A stretch of DNA of 7,517 nucleotides, taken from a virus. Its lineage: Duplodnaviria > Heunggongvirae > Uroviricota > Caudoviricetes. Positions 1 through 7,517 of the stretch are shown here, piece after piece (the stretch's first letter is position 1; each line of letters starts with the position of its first letter). Location of the stretch: the IMG/VR virus record IMGVR_UViG_2706794686_000005, one strand, 5' to 3'. The notes under the pieces are model-generated. The model had not been told where the DNA came from. It saw nothing but the letters and a program-made list of their open reading frames with translations, and did no database searches. The position numbers and the translations under genes are program-made.

Positions 1-87
1 CCCCGGCAGCCTTCAGGGAAAAATATCATCAGATGGCTGCTTAAAAAAAGAACAAATGGTAGTGTCCGCTATTGCCAGTACACCTCA
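1..87. repeat. Left copy of an 87-bp perfect inverted repeat; its reverse complement is 7420..7506
   Basis: Manual reverse-complement of 7420..7506 matches 1..87 base for base; match breaks at 88 vs 7419. Window begins exactly at the repeat boundary. Confidence 0.9.
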
Positions 88-286
88 TCCATCACCGAAA
101 AAAATTGGCTTTTACACCATTGGCGATAAAAGCATTTACCTGTATGACCTACGCCGCATGGATGAAATCATGGAGGCTCTTGATAATCGTTCGTCGATGG
201 ATTGGTGTGTTGCTGTTCATGATATGAATGCAGGGTTTGATGAAAAGATTTTGTTCCCCTCATCAGTTGAAAGCACTGCGGGTTAA
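56..286 (+). CDS. Hypothetical protein (76 aa from ATG 56); frame is open back to position 2, so may be 5'-partial
   Basis: ORF in track; no Shine-Dalgarno before ATG 56 (aaaaaagaacaaATG); no in-frame stop between position 2 and 56; first 10 codons lie inside the inverted repeat. No family recognised. Confidence 0.35.
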   Translation: MVVSAIASTPHPSPKKIGFYTIGDKSIYLYDLRRMDEIMEALDNRSSMDWCVAVHDMNAGFDEKILFPSSVESTAG

Positions 287-296
287 GGAGTAACAC

Positions 297-464
297 ATGA
301 CCACTATTACCAAAGAACGTATTGAATTGTTCATTAAAAACCCGCTTGAAAACGGGCTTACCCGTGGTGAACAAATGGAACTGGCACGGATTGCGCTGGC
401 ATCGCTGGAAGCAGAGCCGGTTGTGTTCTGGTTTGAAAAATATCAAGAAGGGGCTACGGCATGA
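297..464 (+). CDS. Small hypothetical phage protein, 55 aa ([12 protein letters not shown]...); not in the ORF track (below length cutoff)
   Basis: Strong RBS AAGGAG at 285..290, 6 nt before ATG 297; stop TGA overlaps next start as ATGA at 461..464; shares motif [10 protein letters not shown] with the 114-aa ORF downstream. Confidence 0.5.
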
Positions 465-805
465 CGACTTTTACCAGAGAGCAGTTAATAGCTCACGCAG
501 AGGAGACTATTGAAGCACAGAGACTGTGCATACCGGGCACAATCGACCATGACATCATCCGCACATATAAGATGGATATTGCTGTTCTGGAAATCGCACT
601 GGTATCGCTGGCAGCAGAGCCAGCCGGTAAATTGCATGAATACAAACCAGTGGGATATCAGCGTCTGGTCGATGAGTTAACCATGCTGGTAAAGCAGTTA
701 ACCTGGCAACTGAGGAAAGCGAAGCCAGACTGCAAATTACCGGATAAGGCGATGAGTTATCTGGAGCGGAACGGACTGATAAGCGTGGAGGATATTTTAC
801 GATGA
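461..805 (+). CDS. Hypothetical phage nin-region protein, 114 aa
   Basis: ORF in track; ATGA overlap with upstream ORF; purine-rich aagggg 8 nt upstream; paralogous motifs shared with the 55-aa and 80-aa ORFs. No family recognised. Confidence 0.55.
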
Positions 806-885
806 CCTGGCCTGAAGCATTAACAACGGTAGGAATTGCGATGGCGGTGGCGCTGGTGGTGTATTCGATTTGCCGCTGGGGATAA
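802..885 (+). CDS. Putative small hydrophobic peptide, 27 aa ([27 protein letters not shown])
   Basis: ATG 802 overlaps the stop of the 114-aa ORF (ATGA); single predicted membrane-spanning hydrophobic stretch; too short for statistical support. Confidence 0.25.
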
Positions 886-1096
886 AAACGGTTTGCGGGA
901 AAAGGAGAGTTAAGTAGAATTGCAGCGGGTGCTTGAGGCTATCTGTCTCAGGCATGAACACCAAAAGGCAGATAGAGAAAAGCCCCAGTTAACATTACGC
1001 GTCCGGCAAGACGCTTAACATTAATCTGAGGCTCAATCTATGAACGGCAAATCTAGGTTAGCCTCTTACGTGCCGAAAGGCAAGGAGAAGCAGGCT

Positions 1097-1252
1097 ATGA
1101 AGCAGCAAAAGGCGATGTTAATCGCCCTGATCGTCATCTGTTTAACCGTCATAGTGACGGCACTGGTAACGAGGAAAGACCTCTGCGAGGTACGAATTCG
1201 AACCGGCCAGACGGAGGTCGCTGTCTTCACAGCTTACGAACCTGAGGAGTAA
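1097..1252 (+). CDS. hokD: Hok/Gef family type I toxin, 51 aa (host-killing membrane peptide); closest to HokD/RelF by memory
   Basis: Translation MKQQKAMLIALIVICLTVIVTALVTRKDLCEVRIRTGQTEVAVFTAYEPEE matches the Hok family signature (N-terminal TM helix, conserved Cys, C-terminal TGQTEVAVFTAYE) as I recall it; SD AGGAG at 1083..1087. An in-frame upstream ATG at 1040 (SD GAGG 1028..1031) would give a 70-aa extended form. Confidence 0.85.
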   Translation: MKQQKAMLIALIVICLTVIVTALVTRKDLCEVRIRTGQTEVAVFTAYEPEE

Positions 1253-1320
1253 GAGACCAGGCGGGGGAGAAATCCCTCGCCACCTCTGATGGGGCAGGCA
1301 TCCTCAATGCACCCACACTT

Positions 1321-1347
1321 AACCCGCTTCGGCGGGTTTTTGTTTTT
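1321..1347 (+). terminator. Rho-independent terminator after hok
   Basis: Stem CCCGC (1323..1327), TTCG tetraloop, GCGGG (1332..1336), followed by TTTTTGTTTTTATTTT. Confidence 0.7.
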
Positions 1348-1360
1348 ATTTTCAACGCGT

Positions 1361-1390
1361 TTGAAGTTTTAGATGGTGCCGGAATAGAAT
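1361..1390 (+). promoter_or_regulatory. Putative sigma70 promoter for the downstream operon
   Basis: TTGAAG (1361..1366), 18-nt spacer, TAGAAT (1385..1390); sequence match only. Confidence 0.3.
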
Positions 1391-1472
1391 CAAAAATACT
1401 TAAGTAGCGCGCAGGGAGAAGAGGGATGGACCCCGAACAGGGGAGTGCTATTTATCTGGAAGGATTCTGTTG

Positions 1473-1754
1473 ATGAAAATCGAAGAATTACGTGAAATTT
1501 TTAGTGAAGATGGCCTCTATACTGTGCGCGTTGAGAATGGCGCTATTGTCAGCCACTGCCTTCCAGACTACACAATTCTGATAATTCAGCCGTCTTTGCC
1601 AGCAGGCACGGGCGGCGCTCTCACGCATTTAAATCTGATTGGTACCAGCATCCCCCATGCACTGAAGAACAGGCCGAATGGCTCATTCAGTGTTACCGCA
1701 GGCGCGGATGCGAGGTTAAAAAAGCCCTTAGCCTCGACTACCGTCACTGGATAA
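1473..1754 (+). CDS. Hypothetical protein, 93 aa (MKIEELREIFSEDGLY...)
   Basis: ORF in track (TTG 1470 / ATG 1473); SD GGAAGGA at 1459..1465. Sits where rem-like genes lie upstream of ydfU in some prophages, but family not recognised. Confidence 0.45.
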   Translation: MKIEELREIFSEDGLYTVRVENGAIVSHCLPDYTILIIQPSLPAGTGGALTHLNLIGTSIPHALKNRPNGSFSVTAGADARLKKPLASTTVTG

Positions 1755-1829
1755 TCTCCGTCAGGCTCCCTTACTCCGAACGGCCAACGCGTCCGTCCCG
1801 CACATTCCAGCAACGGATCTGGAGGTAAT

Positions 1830-2888
1830 GTGCGGGTATTACTTCGACCTGTTCTGGTACCGGAACTCGGTCTGGTTATCGTTAAGCCAGGCCGTGAATC
1901 AATGTCAGCATTCCATAACGGCAGAATACTGGTGGAGCCGGAACCAAAAAGCATGCGTAATCTGCCGTCCGGGGTCGTTCCTGCCGCTCGCCAGCCGCTG
2001 GTGGAAGACAAAACATTGCTGCCGTTTTTCAGTAACGCACGGGTGATTCGTGCTGCTGGTGGTGCTGGTGCATTGTCTGACTGGCTGTTGCGCCATATTA
2101 AATCCTGCCAGTGGCCACACGGCGATTATCATCACAGCGAAACCGTCATTCACCGTTATGGTACCGGCGCAATGGTGTTGTGCTGGCACTGCGACAACCA
2201 GCTGCGTGACCAGACATCCGAATCACTCGAGCAACTTGCTCATCAAAACCTGTCAGCATGGATGATTGACGTCATCGGTCACGCAATAAGCGGTACGCAG
2301 GAGCGTGAATTATCTCTGGCTGAATTATCCTGGTGGGCGGTCCGCAATCAGGTGGCGGACGCGCTACCGGAAGCGGTATTACGTCGTTCGCTGGGGTTGC
2401 GTGCGGAAAAAATTCGCTCTGTGTACAGTGAAAGCGACATCATACCGGGAGAGCAGACAGCCACCAGCATACTGAAGCAGCGCACAAAAAATATTGCGTT
2501 ACTGCCTCACGTCCACCAGCAACAGAACCCACCACAGGAAAAGACGGTGGTCAGCATTGCCGTTGATCCGGAGTCACCGGCTCAGTATCTCCAGCGCCAG
2601 AAATCACAACGGGAAGAGATGCCTGTATACACGCGCTGGGTAAAAACGCAGAAATGCATGACGTGTGGCAATCAGGCAGATGATCCGCATCACATCATTG
2701 GTCATGGACTGGGAGGGATGGGAACAAAGGCTGATGATTTGTTTGTTATTCCGTTATGCCGTAAATGCCGTAACGAACTACATGCCGGAGTAAAAGATTT
2801 TGAAGAGAAACACGGCAGTCAGCTGTTGTTGCTGATTCGTTTTTTAATGCACGCGAGAAATTCGGGTGTTCTGAAGTGGAAAGCATAA
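1830..2888 (+). CDS. YdfU-like DUF968 family prophage protein, 352 aa, with C-terminal Cys/His cluster
   Basis: Long ORF; GGAGG at 1821..1825 before GTG 1830 (alternative start ATG 1902); C-terminal motif CMTCGNQADDPHH...CRKCRNELH resembles the DUF968 zinc-binding region; position immediately upstream of rusA and Q is typical. Confidence 0.75.
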   Translation: MRVLLRPVLVPELGLVIVKPGRESMSAFHNGRILVEPEPKSMRNLPSGVVPAARQPLVEDKTLLPFFSNARVIRAAGGAGALSDWLLRHIKSCQWPHGDYHHSETVIHRYGTGAMVLCWHCDNQLRDQTSESLEQLAHQNLSAWMIDVIGHAISGTQERELSLAELSWWAVRNQVADALPEAVLRRSLGLRAEKIRSVYSESDIIPGEQTATSILKQRTKNIALLPHVHQQQNPPQEKTVVSIAVDPESPAQYLQRQKSQREEMPVYTRWVKTQKCMTCGNQADDPHHIIGHGLGGMGTKADDLFVIPLCRKCRNELHAGVKDFEEKHGSQLLLLIRFLMHARNSGVLKWKA

Positions 2889-3269
2889 ATGACCGAGCGC
2901 ATAGAATTTGTTTTACCTTACCCGCCGACGGTGAACACTTACTGGCGTCGTCGTGGCAGCACATATTTTGTATCAAAAGCCGGGGAGCGTTATCGCCGGG
3001 CAGTGGCGCTTATTGTTCGCCAGCAGCGGCTGAAATTAAGCCTGTCCGGAAGGTTGGCAATAAAAATTATTGCAGAACCACCGGATAAGCGCCGCCGTGA
3101 CCTGGACAATATTCTGAAAGCGCCGCTGGATGCGCTGACGCATGCGGGGTTGCTAATGGACGATGAGCAGTTTGATGAAATCAATATCGTTCGTGCTCAG
3201 CCAGTATCTGGTGGACGTCTGGGGGTGAAGATTTATCCCATAATGCTTGAAGGGCAGGTCAAAAAATGA
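2889..3269 (+). CDS. rusA: Crossover junction endodeoxyribonuclease RusA (Holliday junction resolvase), copy 1, 126 aa
   Basis: Translation contains the RusA acidic core PDKRRRDLDN...DALT...DDEQ; start abuts the ydfU-like stop; stop overlaps next ATG (ATGA). Confidence 0.9.
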   Translation: MTERIEFVLPYPPTVNTYWRRRGSTYFVSKAGERYRRAVALIVRQQRLKLSLSGRLAIKIIAEPPDKRRRDLDNILKAPLDALTHAGLLMDDEQFDEINIVRAQPVSGGRLGVKIYPIMLEGQVKK

Positions 3270-3471
3270 AACTGGAAGATTTACCGAAATACTACTCCCC
3301 AAAATCCCCCGGCCTGACTGATGCATCGGCCTCAACGTCGAAAGATGCGCTGAGTATCACTGATGTGATGGCCGCGCAGGGCATGACACAGAATCGGGCT
3401 GAGATGGGGGTTTCTGCGTTCCTTGGGAAAATGGGCATTAGTATGAATGACAGAGAGCGGGCAACAGAATT
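3266..3471 (+). CDS. Lambda-Q-family antiterminator, N-terminal 69 codons only; 3' part lost in N-run 3472..3721 and probably truncated or chimeric
   Basis: MKLEDLPKYYSPKSPGLTDASASTSKDALSITDVMAAQGM... aligns with the lambda Q N-terminus (MRLESVAKFHSPKSPMMSD...SGTDVMAAMGM). In-frame sequence after the gap (WLSGDSGGQSTDIFCLWTRKVHGCFPLP*) does not resemble a Q C-terminus, and the total would be 180 aa at most. Confidence 0.5.
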
Positions 3472-3721
3472 NNNNNNNNNNNNNNNNNNNNNNNNNNNNN
3501 NNNNNNNNNNNNNNNNNNNNNNNNNNNNNNNNNNNNNNNNNNNNNNNNNNNNNNNNNNNNNNNNNNNNNNNNNNNNNNNNNNNNNNNNNNNNNNNNNNNN
3601 NNNNNNNNNNNNNNNNNNNNNNNNNNNNNNNNNNNNNNNNNNNNNNNNNNNNNNNNNNNNNNNNNNNNNNNNNNNNNNNNNNNNNNNNNNNNNNNNNNNN
3701 NNNNNNNNNNNNNNNNNNNNN
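3472..3721. other. N-run, 250 nt of unresolved or masked sequence
   Basis: Run of n in the sequence. Confidence 1.
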
Positions 3722-3887
3722 TGGTTGTCTGGAGATTCAGGGGGCCAGTCTACGGACATTTTCTGCCTGTGGACCAGGAAAGTGCACGGGTGCTTTCCAC
3801 TCCCATGAAGCCCGGCAATCCGCGCAGATACAGTAATAAACGAACTGACAGCAGTAAGATGGAGCGTTTCTTTTGAACAACCAGACA

Positions 3888-4130
3888 ATGACTTTTACCC
3901 CTGAACAATTGCGTAAACACGCGCAGGAAATGCTGCGTCATGCTGAACAACTCGAAAAAACGGGCATAACAAAAGACGCTATCCGTAAAGATATGGTACC
4001 CGCGCTTCGGGAACTGATGCAGGCGAAGCATCGCGCACAGAAAGCAGTAGATGAGCTGGTGGACTGTGTGGCAGAGCTGGAAACCAGAGTCGGAAAGTTT
4101 GAAAAACTGGTGCAGGAGGTGCTGCGCTGA
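3888..4130 (+). CDS. Hypothetical protein, 80 aa from ATG 3888 (85 aa from TTG 3873); predicted helical/coiled-coil
   Basis: ORF in track; stop TGA 4128..4130 overlaps the rusA copy 2 start (TGATG); N-terminus MTFTPEQLRKHAQE resembles the 114-aa [18 protein letters not shown]; weak RBS. Confidence 0.45.
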   Translation: MTFTPEQLRKHAQEMLRHAEQLEKTGITKDAIRKDMVPALRELMQAKHRAQKAVDELVDCVAELETRVGKFEKLVQEVLR

Positions 4131-4504
4131 TGCGCCATGAGTTTATTTTACCTTATCCGCCGACGGTGAATACTTACTGGCGACGTCGTGACAACACATA
4201 TTTTGTATCAAAAGCCGGTGAGCGTTATCGCCGGGATGTGGCGCTTATTGTCCGTCAGCAGCGACTGAAATTAAGCCTGTCCGGAAGACTGGCGATAAAG
4301 ATTATTGCAGAGCCACCGGATAAGCGCCGTCGTGACCTGGACAATATCCTGAAAGCACCACTGGATGCACTGACACATGCGGGAGTGTTAATGGACGATG
4401 AGCAGTTTGATGAAATCAATATCGTTCGTGGTCAGCCAGTATCTGGTGGACGTCTGGGGGTGAAGATTTACCCCATAATGCATGAAGAGCAGGTCAAAAA
4501 ATGA
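4130..4504 (+). CDS. rusA: Crossover junction endodeoxyribonuclease RusA, copy 2, 124 aa; divergent paralogue of copy 1
   Basis: Same RusA core motifs; SD AGGAGG at 4113..4118; differs from copy 1 at the N-terminus and at 7 internal residues, with many synonymous nucleotide differences. Confidence 0.9.
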   Translation: MRHEFILPYPPTVNTYWRRRDNTYFVSKAGERYRRDVALIVRQQRLKLSLSGRLAIKIIAEPPDKRRRDLDNILKAPLDALTHAGVLMDDEQFDEINIVRGQPVSGGRLGVKIYPIMHEEQVKK

Positions 4505-5175
4505 AACTGGAAGATTTACNNNNNNNNNNNNNNNNNNNNNNNNNNNNNNNNNNNNNNNNNNNNNNNNNNNNNNNNNNNNNNNNNNNNNNNNNNNNNNNNN
4601 NNNNNNNNNNNNNNNNNNNNNNNNNNNNNNNNNNNNNNNNNNNNNNNNNNNNNNNNNNNNNNNNNNNNNGCCCTTGTTGCTATGGGGAAAAATTTATTGA
4701 AAGCGTAGTTTTTACAAACAAGGTCCAGTATCCGGATGGTAAGCCGCCGGTATGGGCAAAGTGTACGAAAGGTGTGTATCCGTCTTACTGGGAAGAATGG
4801 AAAAAAGTCAGGGAGGTGGTAAAAGTTGCCTGTCCGGAGTGTGGCGGAAAGGGTGAGGTTTCCACCGCCTGTAAGGATTGCCGTGGGCGTGGTGTCGCCA
4901 TTCATCGTGAAGAGTCGGTAAAACGTGGTATGCCTGTTATCAGAGACTGCCAGCGTTGTGGTGGTCGTGGCTATGAAAGACTACCATCAACGGAGGCATT
5001 TAATGCTATATGCGAGGTGACAAACCAGATAACACGCGCGTCATGGGAAAAAACAGTTAAGAAATTCTATGATGCGCTGGTGACTCGGTTTGATATTGAA
5101 GAAGCATGGGCTGAGCGGCAGTTAAAAAAGGTAACTAGGTTGATTTTTCCGGAATCTGTGGTAAATTCGTCATAA
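4501..5175 (+). CDS. Q: Lambda-Q-family late-gene antiterminator, 224 aa; codons 7..56 masked by N-run
   Basis: ATGA coupling to rusA; first 19 nt identical to the Q fragment at 3266; zinc-finger-like CPECGGKG...CKDCRGRG...CQRCGGRGY and C-terminal TVKKFYDALV parallel lambda Q (CRDCHGTG...CGRCKGVGY...TVKPLYDALV). Confidence 0.8.
   Translation: MKLEDLXXXXXXXXXXXXXXXXXXXXXXXXXXXXXXXXXXXXXXXXXXXXXXXXXXXPCCYGEKFIESVVFTNKVQYPDGKPPVWAKCTKGVYPSYWEEWKKVREVVKVACPECGGKGEVSTACKDCRGRGVAIHREESVKRGMPVIRDCQRCGGRGYERLPSTEAFNAICEVTNQITRASWEKTVKKFYDALVTRFDIEEAWAERQLKKVTRLIFPESVVNSS
4520..4669. other. N-run, 150 nt, inside Q
   Basis: Run of n in the sequence. Confidence 1.
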
Positions 5176-5178
5176 CTA

Positions 5179-5215
5179 TGGGCGTTTTATGCCTGACGTT
5201 AGAAGAGTTTCTACA
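5179..5215. repeat. 37-bp direct repeat, copy 1 (tgggcgttttatgcctgacgttagaagagtttctaca), ending at N-run
   Basis: Identical to 5483..5519; true extent unknown because the inner side of each copy abuts N. Confidence 0.85.
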
Positions 5216-5482
5216 NNNNNNNNNNNNNNNNNNNNNNNNNNNNNNNNNNNNNNNNNNNNNNNNNNNNNNNNNNNNNNNNNNNNNNNNNNNNNNNNNNNNN
5301 NNNNNNNNNNNNNNNNNNNNNNNNNNNNNNNNNNNNNNNNNNNNNNNNNNNNNNNNNNNNNNNNNNNNNNNNNNNNNNNNNNNNNNNNNNNNNNNNNNNN
5401 NNNNNNNNNNNNNNNNNNNNNNNNNNNNNNNNNNNNNNNNNNNNNNNNNNNNNNNNNNNNNNNNNNNNNNNNNNNNNNNNNN
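5216..5482. other. N-run, 267 nt, in the expected pR'/qut position downstream of Q
   Basis: Run of n in the sequence. Confidence 1.
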
Positions 5483-5519
5483 TGGGCGTTTTATGCCTGA
5501 CGTTAGAAGAGTTTCTACA
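5483..5519. repeat. 37-bp direct repeat, copy 2
   Basis: Identical to 5179..5215. Confidence 0.85.
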
Positions 5520-5520
5520 A

Positions 5521-5542
5521 CCCGCCGCCGAGCGGGTTTTTT
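5521..5542 (+). terminator. Rho-independent terminator, tR'-like, downstream of Q
   Basis: Stem CCCGC (5521..5525), loop CGCCGA, GCGGG (5532..5536), then TTTTTT; the CGGG-TTTTTTAT ending resembles the lambda tR' 3' end as I recall it. Confidence 0.65.
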
Positions 5543-5662
5543 ATGACTGAAATCGCGTCAGTACAGTAAACGCGCTGGTGGCGGTGAATACCTGTCTTTC
5601 AGCTTGCTGGCTTTTTCGACAAGAGTTATTGGTGTGTCACGTTAACCGGAAAAGGAAAAGAC

Positions 5663-6370
5663 ATGCTAAAACAGCAGGATATGACAGAAACCGCCAGAGT
5701 GGTGTTTAATGAATTAAGCGTTNNNNNNNNNNNNNNNNNNNNNNNNNNNNNNNNNNNNNNNNNNNNNNNNNNNNNNNNNNNNNNNNNNNNNNNNNNNNNN
5801 NNNNNNNNNNNNNNNNNNNNNNNNNNNNNNNNNNNNNNNNNNNNNNNNNNNNNNNNNNNNNNNNNNNNNNNNNNNNNNNNNNNNNNNNNNNNNNNNNNNN
5901 NNNNNNNNNNNNNNNNNNNNNNNNNNNNNNNNNNNNNNNNNNNNNNNNNNNNNNNNNNNNNNNNNNNNNNNNNNNNNNNNNNNNNNNNNNNNNNNNNNNN
6001 NNNNNNNNNNNNNNNNNNGATTGAGTGTTTGTTATACGGTCTAATGGTTTTTTCAGCATTAAATATTTATCATTCATATGGTGTGGGTAGAGTGAATATT
6101 GATGAGGCGTCGGGGTGTTTCATCCTTAGGCAGCGTATTGATATAGTCAATGCAGCACGAGCAAAGGCCTTCAGCCGTTTGACAGTTTTGTTCTGTACTC
6201 CTGATCGTCTTTCGGGAAGAGACGTTATTATTCTGAATAGTGATGCTATACAGAGGGTTTGCGATGAGTTCATGGTTGCTAATTCAGAATTATTTGCTCT
6301 TGTTCAGGAGTACAACAGAATAGCCAGGACCTGTGGTATGGATGAACTTCGGATTACTCATCTGGGGTAG
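5663..6370 (+). CDS. Hypothetical cargo protein; 235 aa only if N-run 5723..6018 preserves frame and hides no stop; otherwise two genes
   Basis: Good RBS (aaaaggaaaag) before ATG 5663; 117 open codons after the gap; AT-rich codon usage with rare AGG/AGA/ATA/CTA; competing minus-strand ORF 5706..6077 lacks an RBS. No family recognised. Confidence 0.4.
   Translation: MLKQQDMTETARVVFNELSVXXXXXXXXXXXXXXXXXXXXXXXXXXXXXXXXXXXXXXXXXXXXXXXXXXXXXXXXXXXXXXXXXXXXXXXXXXXXXXXXXXXXXXXXXXXXXXXXXXXIECLLYGLMVFSALNIYHSYGVGRVNIDEASGCFILRQRIDIVNAARAKAFSRLTVLFCTPDRLSGRDVIILNSDAIQRVCDEFMVANSELFALVQEYNRIARTCGMDELRITHLG
5723..6018. other. N-run, 296 nt, inside the cargo ORF
   Basis: Run of n in the sequence. Confidence 1.
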
Positions 6371-6696
6371 ATACATATCTGGATTATCACCTGTTACGGT
6401 AAAAAGTGATTGCTTACTGTTTTTGTGAATGGCATTGCAGCAGCCGGATAATGTCAGTGCTGGCTGACGGTGTGCTGGTGGCGGGTGTGGTGGTTGTTGC
6501 TTTCCCGTTGCTGAAAAAGAAAACGCCAGACTGTTAGCCGGGTATCAGTTAGCGGGAGAAATTTTTAAATACTTCACAATTCAGGCGGTTGACTGTTGTC
6601 TGGTTTGCGGGGAGTTTGTTAAAAGAAACTGGCATGGTGAATCCCCCTGTGCGGAGGGGCTGTTTATATTGATTTTGTCAGATGTGAGTAAACTCC

Positions 6697-7032
6697 TTAT
6701 GGACTTTGTTGTTTTAGTCCATAAGGACATATTTGCAGAGTGCAACGGTTATTAAAGCATTCATTCAATACGTTATCTGTATTTGTAGGGCATTCCTGGC
6801 TATTTTTGATTGAATTCCAGAATGTTTTATTGAATGGTACTACGTTGTAAATGGTTACAGGTAGCACTTTGTTATTGAGCATGATGCCTGTGTGAGTCAG
6901 TGTAAATATACTTTCAGGAGGTAAGAAAGCATCCGATTGATACCAGATTATTAATTTTATTTTACTCCATATGACTGAAAAAGATATTCCGCATGATGGC
7001 TGGATAACTGTATCAATCACAATCCACTTCAT
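6697..7032 (-). CDS. Hypothetical protein, 111 aa, Cys/Trp-containing, in AT-rich DNA
   Basis: Minus-strand ORF with no overlapping plus-strand gene; RBS AAGGA about 6 nt before the ATG (plus-strand 7030..7032 is cat); candidate promoter TTTACA-N17-TACTTT upstream on the minus strand. No family recognised. Confidence 0.45.
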
Positions 7033-7292
7033 TTAGTTTCCTTGTTTATGCCTTGCTGGTGATGTTCTGAAAAGTATAAATGATATTTTTGAATGTAAAC
7101 CATAGAGCAGAATTATTTTTCTGATGTTGTTTATTGTTTATTTAAATGCAGGGTGGTTTATATCTCGTCTTGTAGTTTATCCATGCATATCTGCTTGATA
7201 ATCAGGTTTTTATTTAAGGTATGGTTTTGTGTTTTTTCTGTATTACATGTCAGGTATTTTAAAGAATTATTTTTCAGATGGTGGAAAGAACC

Positions 7293-7466
7293 ATGGCATT
7301 TAAACACTATGATGTTGTCAGGGCGGCGCCGCCGTCAGATCTTGCGGAAAAGCTGACACATAAACTGAAAGAGGGCTGGCAGCCGTTTGGTAGTCCGGTG
7401 GCCATAACCCCTTATACCCTGAGGTGTACTGGCAATAGCGGACACTACCATTTGTTCTTTTTTTAA
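7293..7466 (+). CDS. Small hypothetical phage protein, 57 aa (MAFKHYDVVRAAPPSDLAEKLTHKLKEGWQPFGSPVAI...); last 15 codons encoded by the right inverted-repeat copy
   Basis: ORF in track from ATG 7278; ATG 7293 preferred because of ggaaag upstream; the GWQP.G motif is reminiscent of small phage proteins in the DUF1737 class, but that is uncertain memory. Confidence 0.4.
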   Translation: MAFKHYDVVRAAPPSDLAEKLTHKLKEGWQPFGSPVAITPYTLRCTGNSGHYHLFFF

Positions 7467-7506
7467 GCAGCCATCTGATGATATTTTTCCCTGAAGGCTG
7501 CCGGGG
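7420..7506. repeat. Right copy of the 87-bp perfect inverted repeat (reverse complement of 1..87)
   Basis: Verified by manual reverse-complement in 10-nt blocks; followed by 11 nt (agatattcccc) to the window end. Confidence 0.9.
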
Positions 7507-7517
7507 AGATATTCCCC

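Follow-up and report, generated by a model that had tools for sequence, protein, structure and literature searches.

Does a phage sequence that begins and ends in a perfect inverted repeat form a unit that can invert? The question is raised by the 7,517-nt viral stretch analysed here (the window), in which positions 1-87 are the exact reverse complement (100%, direct comparison within the window) of 7420-7506. With three mismatches tolerated, none of 200 dinucleotide-preserving shuffles gave a match, and the arms diverge abruptly at 88 (TCCATC...) and at 7419, confirming the pair and its sharp limits as described in the original prediction. That prediction had gone further, proposing that the repeat brackets a 7.4-kb nin-Q-cargo segment, that it would serve as a substrate for RecA, and that a window starting exactly at the repeat reflects a meaningful unit.

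Each arm corresponds to the end of IS600 next to its IRR; IS600 is an IS3-family element of 1264 bp present in many copies in Shigella. A search of other genomes for the repeat, as had been suggested, found 7415-7517 at 99-100% identity in 6104 places in 2887 E. coli genomes, where RefSeq annotates the matches as 'IS3-like element IS600 family transposase'. The left arm comprises the final 87 nt of the element and the right arm side the final 98 nt, the arms carrying the last 13 codons and the stop codon of transposase orfB followed by the right terminal repeat (IRR):

1..87, plus strand: 3' end of IS600, last 87 nt (RefSeq IS600 annotation; full copy in locus L008).
Within 1..87, plus strand: C-terminus of orfB, PAAFREKYHQMAA, with its stop codon at 43-45 (comparison with the full copy in L008).
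Within 1..87, plus strand: IRR ending ...CCAGTACACCTCA at 87; IS600 lies to the left of the window and reads inward.
7420..7517, minus strand: 3' end of another IS600 copy, last 98 nt, inverted relative to the first (IRR tip TGAGGTGTAC... at 7420); the element lies to the right of the window.

The extent of 87 bp is set by the edge of the window rather than by the repeat itself. IS600 continues beyond it, and in the related contig L001, which has both junctions as in the window, the arms measure 107 nt. Likewise, the near-palindrome with an 11-bp centre that circular joining was expected to create is merely further IS600 sequence, as 7507-7517, the 11 nt past the right arm, are the next 11 nt of the element. 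Flanking sequence, which the original prediction had recommended inspecting, extends the repeat in relatives to full 1264-bp copies. The full copy in L008 has TG...CA ends and encodes orfA of 100 aa and orfB of 272 aa; across the full 1264-bp copies in L008 and L014-L033, the coding capacity is either 100 aa plus 272 aa or a 385-aa fusion, with orfA assigned by Pfam to HTH_Tnp_1 and orfB to rve. The terminal inverted repeats are imperfect (5'-TG...CA-3'; IRL TGAGGTAGCCTGAGTTTAACGGACACTCC, IRR as reverse complement TGAGGTGTACTGGCAATAGCGGACACTACC), and the window holds the IRR twice along with the orfB tail and no other part of IS600. Both the arms and the adjoining full copies match the known element throughout, the element itself showing no difference. 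IS600 is one of five IS elements expanded across all Shigella species (PMC7373316). The inverted repeat is thus a known and commonplace feature rather than the mark of a special 7.4-kb unit able to invert.

Each arm adjoins a phage gene that is cut at the junction:

88..286, plus strand: remaining 3' portion of a small nin-region gene ('gene A') cut by IS600; the match to intact prophages begins exactly at 88.
7293..7419, plus strand: 5' portion of a DUF1737 gene cut by IS600; the match to intact prophages reaches as far as 7422.

The intact homologue of gene A has 87 aa (WP_000224233.1; intact gene at L012 8936..9199), and Pfam identifies the truncated 7293..7419 gene as DUF1737 (E = 1.1e-15). 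Intact E. coli prophages carry both interrupted genes uninterrupted, and among the sequence matches to the window ends neither junction was present in complete E. coli genomes. The sequences of both junctions are found unchanged in 12 IMG/VR contigs and in many independent closed chromosomes, S. sonnei 53G (HE616528.1) being one. Exact scans of collections of genome contigs and of metagenome contigs gave no match to the right junction, and a gapped pattern spanning the 150-nt N run described below gave none in viral contigs. As had been noted before, the left arm contains the ATG that opens ORF 56..286, and ORF 7293..7466 ends within the right arm. These are IS-fusion reading frames, and the codons supplied by the arms, likewise noted before, are a trivial outcome of IS600 truncating two phage genes. 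The fusion ORFs were found in 795 (left) and 888 (right) blocks, 83 and 73 of which are on chromosome-size contigs. The right-junction gene lies on 2-5 kb contigs in 614 of its 888 blocks, as expected for a separate 3.6-kb P2 piece between an IS2 end and IS600.

What lies between the arms is not one sequence. The window consists of five pieces split by four N runs, and the pieces match, in the order P1, P2, P2, P1, P2 and at 99.97-100% identity, two paralogous lambdoid prophage remnants of Shigella sonnei, of which P1 adjoins ompW in closed genomes and P2 adjoins an IS2/IS21 cluster:

1..3471, plus strand: piece c1, P1 (99.97% to L018 9946-13416).
3472..3721, no strand: N run of 250 nt, a scaffold gap or mask.
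3722..4519, plus strand: piece c2, P2 (100% to L024 6505-7302).
4520..4669, no strand: N run of 150 nt; the true distance in P2 is 330 nt.
4670..5215, plus strand: piece c3, 3' part of the P2 Q antiterminator gene (100% to P2, 97.4% to P1).
5216..5482, no strand: N run of 267 nt, flanked by the same 37-nt sequence before and after.
5483..5722, plus strand: piece c4, P1 (100% to L018 14077-14316; P2 matches only 5483-5544).
5723..6018, no strand: N run of 296 nt; the same flanks in relatives are 402 nt (L001) or 1749 nt (L003) apart.
6019..7419, plus strand: piece c5, right part of P2 (100% / 99.8% to L024 8606-10127).

Besides the IS600 end and nin genes, piece c1 carries hok/sok, DUF968, RusA (126 aa), and the initial 206 nt of Q. 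The first 31 nt of c2 (3722-3752) come from the very end of a different multicopy IS3-family element, where the repeat ends at about L024 6536; it occurs in 22,901 places in E. coli under the generic annotation 'IS3 family transposase', and we take it to be IS2 from its terminal sequence. An 85-aa ORF, RusA (124 aa), and the opening 19 nt of Q follow further into c2, which breaks off after the first 30 nt of a 56-nt run in which P1 and P2 do not differ. Piece c3 includes a 343-nt run in Q identical between the two remnants. In c4, a 62-nt stretch common to P1 and P2 gives way to 178 nt specific to P1, the start of a 65-aa gene upstream of a DNA methyltransferase. Piece c5 carries a 117-aa ORF, DUF3927, an IraM-like gene (6697-7032, minus strand), and the truncated DUF1737 gene. 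The lengths of the N runs disagree with the true distances in relatives, and the 1749-nt L003 counterpart of the last one holds methyltransferase and tRNA genes.

In closed genomes, the two junctions part company. Each of 20 chromosome-scale loci, displayed with 10 kb on each side, has only one of the two junctions, and in all 20 each junction stays in its own locus. Nowhere in these 20 loci was c1 found together with c2 or c5, nor was the piece order of the window. In CP022457.1, the sole closed genome yielding both loci and hence the one source of the spacing, the two IS600 copies lie at 4,096,952-4,098,215 and 3,361,287-3,362,550, identical to each other, inverted, and with 734,401 bp between them. 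The alternating P1 and P2 pieces bear out the suggestion that two prophages are involved. The same data do not support the bracketed segment: the intervening 7.4 kb is broken by four N runs and is not seen as one contiguous piece in any of the 20 chromosome-scale loci, and the junctions that were to bracket it belong to different prophage remnants, 734 kb apart in CP022457.1.

Thus, the window is very probably a chimeric scaffold whose arms are IS600 ends and whose junctions lie in different prophage remnants, and the 7.4-kb 'unit' is most likely an assembly construct. The nin-region gene at 87/88 and the DUF1737 gene at 7419/7420 are truncated by two oppositely oriented IS600 copies whose right ends point inward. 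A short-read assembler is unable to pass through a multicopy element, and the sequence accordingly halts 87 and 98 nt inside IS600, leaving a 'terminal inverted repeat' of arbitrary length. The window start at the repeat reflects such a contig break, not a meaningful unit. The N runs would be scaffold gaps, and the gapped scaffold would interleave pieces of P1 and P2, which have long identical runs in the rusA-Q region. The 343-nt run in Q explains how mis-scaffolding from short reads could have joined the two loci. The 37-nt overlap across the gap at 5216-5482 speaks for this reading, the duplicated sequence having a single occurrence in every relative. These features are those of repeat-induced contig breaks and mis-scaffolding: the window likewise ends inside a multicopy IS, and c2 is likewise bounded by an IS end and a P1/P2-identical run. 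Here they come with the cross-gap overlap, gap sizes unrelated to true distances, and interleaved paralogous loci.

Counter-evidence comes from other short-read contigs. L001, L009, and the 8160-nt contig IMGVR_UViG_2693429621_000002 (L010 + L003) join P1-left to P2-right without long N runs, the crossover lying in the 62-nt stretch common to P1 and P2 in L001 and in a shared tRNA gene in IMGVR_UViG_2693429621_000002. The segment could accordingly be real and contiguous in the source strain, a hybrid remnant with the left half of P1 and the right half of P2 that arose by gene conversion or double crossover between the prophages, with Q and the right-hand IS600 as anchors. A full IS600 copy would stand at each end of it, the two in inverted orientation, and homologous recombination could flip the segment. 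A similar architecture exists nearby, since P1 in closed genomes is itself a nin-Q-methylase segment of 6.4 kb flanked by two IS600 copies, one inverted relative to the other (L014 8769-10032, plus strand, and 16398-17661, minus strand), and conversion anchored in Q and IS600 could make the hybrid in some lineages. However, no hybrid was found among about 25 plus 26 chromosome-scale contigs, and the crossover points in short-read assemblies vary from one assembly to the next, always falling in exact P1/P2 repeats of 62-82 nt. Moreover, the window also has P2-left (c2) and P1-right (c4), which means that all four arms of the canonical two-locus arrangement exist in the source, and, P1 and P2 being directly oriented, one crossover between them would remove about 734 kb. 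We therefore regard a contiguous hybrid in the source strain as unlikely, and hold it very doubtful that a P1-P2 hybrid is real in some lineages, forming a small IS600-bracketed flip-flop segment.

The inverted IS600 pair around phage DNA also recalls a composite transposon, in which the two copies would mobilize the prophage segment between them as a unit. Simple IS600 insertions show a 3-bp target-site duplication, as at the P1-right copy (GGA/GGA), whose empty site is found in L015, L020, and L007, and at an extra copy in L031 (GTG/GTG). Unlike these, the copies adjoining the window have no matching duplication (TTT/TCC and TAG/GGG, both checked against the present outer flanks). This rules out either of them as a simple insertion with its present outer flank and implies a secondary rearrangement of their flanks. 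For the pair as a unit, the flanks at the outer (IRL) ends, TTT and TAG, share no common target-site duplication and belong to the unrelated loci described above, and the junctions always occur in the same genomic contexts, with no sign of unit movement. Mobilization as a unit is highly improbable.

Its position exactly at the ends of a plainly fragmented assembly might cast suspicion on the inverted repeat as an artefact, for example a hairpin or a chimeric-read palindrome formed at contig ends; this is barely credible and is refuted by the verbatim junctions in independent closed chromosomes and IMG/VR contigs. A dedicated site-specific invertible switch or a phage or plasmid telomere palindrome, for which the presence of an inverted repeat speaks and nothing more, is refuted to a probability close to nil, as the ORF list and Pfam yield no invertase (Hin/Gin/Fim type), recombinase, or telomerase gene in the window and the arms consist of the IRR and the end of a transposase coding sequence, with contiguous IS600 as the 11-nt 'centre'.

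The real inverted pair is the two identical 1264-bp IS600 copies some 0.73 Mb apart, ordinary substrates for RecA-dependent exchange. The predicted RecA substrate survives in this form: closed genomes do show flank exchange consistent with homologous recombination, and the true repeat is the full IS600 pair, not the 87-bp arms. The 8768-nt sequence outside the P2 copy is joined to the P1 copy in L022 and L008 (99.93% identity), giving one type of recombinant junction that leads from the flank with a 203-aa gene through IS600 into P1. CP045932.1 shows this arrangement, as expected from IS600 x IS600 exchange. Closed genomes thus show both flank combinations (L022/L008 versus L014/L024). The copies differ by 0-3 SNPs, and none inside the L022 IS600 copy is informative as proof of a crossover; the flank swap probably arose by homologous recombination.

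IS600-IS600 recombination of this kind is known biology, and IS-flanked inversions in S. sonnei are documented (PMC12795559). As in those inversions, identical inverted IS copies, here the P1-left/P2-right IS600 pair, would act as recombination substrates. In contrast, the approximately 734-kb interval of CP022457.1 is not among the inversions given in the consulted part of that source. On evenly balanced grounds, the IS600 pair may mark the breakpoints of an inversion polymorphism of about 0.73 Mb in S. sonnei, with CP022457.1-type genomes on one side and CP045932.1 and the L008 strain on the other; it would be a specific large inversion unnamed in the portions of the literature consulted.

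The locus invites comparison with the IS600-flanked defective Stx prophage of S. dysenteriae type 1, likewise a Shigella lambdoid remnant with IS600 by the late-gene cargo region; IS600 upstream of stx has been mentioned (PMC7819885). It differs in species and locus, and the readable window and related loci are without stx genes. Stx genes hidden in the N runs were considered and rejected, as what relatives have at those places is methyltransferase, tRNA, and small-ORF sequence.

The case serves as a caution: in a draft contig from an IS-rich genome such as Shigella, perfectly inverted ends usually mean no more than the same multicopy IS met twice, and N-gapped scaffolds can merge paralogous prophage remnants into units with no real counterpart. 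For Shigella itself, the truncation of prophage genes by IS600 fits the established IS-driven plasticity of these genomes and calls for no new mechanism. The insertion polymorphisms with 3-bp duplications show that IS600 was recently active, and the element supplies identical 1.26-kb inverted repeats that swap flanks between genomes.

A perfect inverted repeat spans the ends of the window: positions 1-87 and 7420-7506 are 100% complementary over 87 nt, as determined by a repeat finder and by direct string comparison, and identity is lost at once at 88 and 7419. The 87-mer is present exactly twice in the window, once on each strand, and zero times in 200 dinucleotide-preserving shuffles, even when up to three mismatches are allowed. 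The original observation is thus correct.

In complete E. coli genomes, homology starts exactly at 88 on the left side of the window and stops at 7422 on the right side, so the arms do not belong to the prophage backbone. Searched alone, 7415-7517 matches at 6104 positions across 2887 E. coli genomes, both chromosomal and on plasmids, where the annotation reads 'IS3-like element IS600 family transposase'. A full IS600 copy of 1264 bp on the IMG/VR contig L008 extends from TGAGGTAGCC... (left terminal repeat, IRL) to ...GGTAGTGTCCGCTATTGCCAGTACACCTCA (right terminal repeat, IRR) and codes for orfA (100 aa) and orfB (272 aa, C-terminus ...PAAFREKYHQMAA). The repeat is an already known feature, the ends of IS600:

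1-87, plus strand: left-hand IS600 end, final 87 nt with the orfB tail (stop 43-45) and IRR
7420-7517, minus strand: right-hand IS600 end, final 98 nt of another copy

Given these positions and strands, both right ends face inward. IS600 runs on past the right arm, and the related draft contig L001 shares both junctions, its arms being 107 nt long; the extent of 87 is thus set by the sequence end and not by biology. The start of the window at the repeat, which had been taken to suggest a meaningful unit, reflects a contig that broke off within a multicopy IS, and the 11 nt past the right arm, envisaged as the centre of a near-palindrome on circular joining, are further IS600 sequence.

Two genes that are whole in intact E. 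coli prophages are interrupted here: a hypothetical nin-region gene of 87 aa (L012 8936..9199) at the left junction and, at the right junction, a DUF1737 gene that lies upstream of the holin (L013 9394..9579). As predicted, ORF 56..286 begins within the left arm and ORF 7293..7466 finishes within the right arm; both are truncated phage genes joined to IS-end sequence. The lost 5' part of the nin gene lies 3 kb off and inverted (L018 6644-7030, minus strand). There it runs straight into the 3' end of the integrase gene of the prophage, beside ompW, to give an ORF of 128 aa whose joint lacks an IS. One endpoint of this inversion is exactly at the IS end, the other is without an IS. The 5' part includes TCC, which also opens window position 88, and from sequence this doubled TCC appears to be the original target duplication of IS600.

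Four N runs interrupt the window between the arms (3472-3721, 250 nt; 4520-4669, 150 nt; 5216-5482, 267 nt; 5723-6018, 296 nt), and the five pieces match two paralogous lambdoid prophage remnants of Shigella sonnei, P1 and P2:

1-3471 (c1): P1, 99.97%
3722-4519 (c2): P2, 100%
4670-5215 (c3): P2, 100%; 97.4% to P1
5483-5722 (c4): P1, 100%; P2 has only the first 62 nt
6019-7517 (c5): P2, 100% / 99.8%

In closed genomes, the two remnants are arranged as follows:

P1, left: ompW ... DUF4014(-) ... DUF977(-), IS600(+)
P1, middle: nin genes, hok/sok, DUF968, RusA-126, Q-273, 65-aa gene, DNA methyltransferase, tRNAs
P1, right: IS600(-), nanS-like gene, holin
P2, before IS600: IS2/IS21 cluster, 85-aa ORF, RusA-124, Q-284, tRNAs, DUF3927, IraM-like gene, truncated DUF1737
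P2, from IS600 on: IS600(-), 203-aa gene ... Dam, resolvase, cmoA/B

The N-run lengths differ from the true flank distances: the 150-nt run corresponds to 330 nt in P2, and the 296-nt run to 402 nt in L001 and 1749 nt in the draft contig L003. The same 37-mer stands on either side of the third gap (5179-5215 = 5483-5519) and occurs once in every relative. Piece c2 opens with 31 nt (3722-3752) from the end of a further multicopy IS3-family element, which we take to be IS2 on its IRL terminal sequence, and stops 30 nt into a stretch identical in P1 and P2. In closed genomes, the IS2-like element (L024 about 3150-6536) is itself split by an IS21 copy (istA/istB) and forms the left boundary of P2. 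Moreover, P1 and P2 share an identical run of 343 nt inside the Q antiterminator gene (L018 13614-13956 = L027 7688-8030; window about 4725-5067), and each of the four arms expected around a two-in, two-out repeat is present in the window (P1-left, P2-left, P1-right start, and P2-right). Together, these features are the signature of a chimeric short-read scaffold, which would have chained contigs of two paralogous loci via a collapsed repeat. Typical short reads are shorter than 343 nt, and the Q run is able to defeat short-read assembly.

Gene conversion could also act on this run and might have created a real P1-P2 hybrid, an unlikely reading that none of the closed genomes examined supports. 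Public assemblies contain the two fusion proteins in 795 and 888 blocks, of which 83 and 73 have contigs >1 Mb, among them HE616528.1 of S. sonnei 53G, and 20 of 20 chromosome-scale loci (10 kb each side) carry a single one of the two junctions. The right-junction gene lies on 2-5 kb contigs in 614 of the 888 blocks, fitting a separate 3.6-kb P2 piece from the IS2 end to IS600. Further, P1 and P2 cross over inside the 62-nt common stretch in L001 and L009 and in the common tRNA-Arg gene in an 8160-nt contig, and L006 repeats the RusA-124 piece; this variation between assemblies favours assembly ambiguity over one real structure. A composite transposon of two IS600 copies fails, as in closed genomes the segment is not contiguous and no shared target duplication flanks it. 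An artefactual repeat is refuted by both junctions being found verbatim in many closed chromosomes, and an invertase switch or telomere palindrome finds no support. The apparent 7.4-kb unit between the repeats is thus most likely an assembly construct.

The window also carries two RusA genes in series (2889-3269, 126 aa; 4130-4504, 124 aa; ~90% identical DNA), covered by repeat D1 (2897-3196 / 4132-4431). As the pair is split between the two remnants in closed genomes, the apparent tandem duplication comes from the scaffold. Other features are:

927-1102: sok RNA (RF01794, 112 bits)
1040-1252: Hok/Gef-family ORF (Pfam E = 3e-23)
6697-7032, minus strand: IraM-like anti-adapter gene, between Q and the DUF1737 gene

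Positions 927-1252 constitute a hok/sok type I toxin-antitoxin module. The E. coli homologue of the IraM-like gene is 'anti-adapter protein IraM' in RefSeq and its precomputed Pfam match is PmrD. When the 110-aa translation was scanned afresh against Pfam, nothing matched at E <= 0.001. An indel polymorphism lies at 1560/1561: an extra 250 nt (L015 11506-11755), in or beside an ORF matching Pfam 'Rem' (PF27490), is carried by L015, L020, L006, L007, and L011 and missing from the window and L014-type genomes. In closed genomes, P2 encodes the sRNA STnc100 (RF02076, 132 bits; L024 9190-9379). Of this sRNA, the window at about 6603-6671 is without 121 internal nt (L024 9248-9368, bounded on each side by a GGAGGGGC motif) and has no Rfam match there, which could reflect a real deletion or assembly collapse.

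Our inference is that no such 7.4-kb unit exists. The earlier interpretation is partly supported, with the proposed RecA-mediated inversion standing only at the scale of IS600 against IS600. In CP022457.1 (coordinates converted from locus ranges), the P1-left copy (4,096,952-4,098,215) and the P2-right copy (3,361,287-3,362,550) are identical in sequence and oppositely oriented with IRR inward, 734,401 bp apart. The real repeat pair is these two 1264-bp copies ~0.73 Mb apart, which are good RecA substrates.

This picture does not depart from the IS600 and Shigella literature. Five IS elements, IS600 among them, have expanded in every Shigella species, and IS600 appears in the list for S. sonnei 53G (PMC7373316). 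It lies beside a defective lambdoid prophage in S. dysenteriae 1 (PMC7819885), and inversions flanked by IS elements have been documented for S. sonnei (PMC12795559). IS600 has been recently active at the P1/P2 loci. The P1-right copy (L014 16398-17661) separates the methyltransferase/tRNA region from the nanS-like gene and is polymorphic: it is a simple insertion flanked by a 3-bp GGA duplication, and L015 (about 16636-16656, GGCCTGGAAGGATAGCGGTCA), L020, and L007 keep the empty site. L031 has an additional strain-specific copy inside the Dam gene, where GTG is duplicated. The window-adjacent copies have no target duplication in their present flanks (TTT/TCC, TAG/GGG), which fits earlier exchanges. 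In L022 (CP045932.1) and L008, the IRL side of the P1-left IS600 consists of 8768 nt (99.93%) of the P2-right flank; in ten other genomes this stretch adjoins the P2-right IS600. This swapped 8.8-kb flank (L022 1-10032 and L008 7355-10847 compared with L024 10128-20174) contains the 203-aa gene ... Dam, resolvase, and cmoA/B. On sequence comparison, the swap means that two IS600 copies, ~734 kb apart in CP022457.1, have exchanged flanks, probably by inversion, with one of the two reciprocal junctions being seen.
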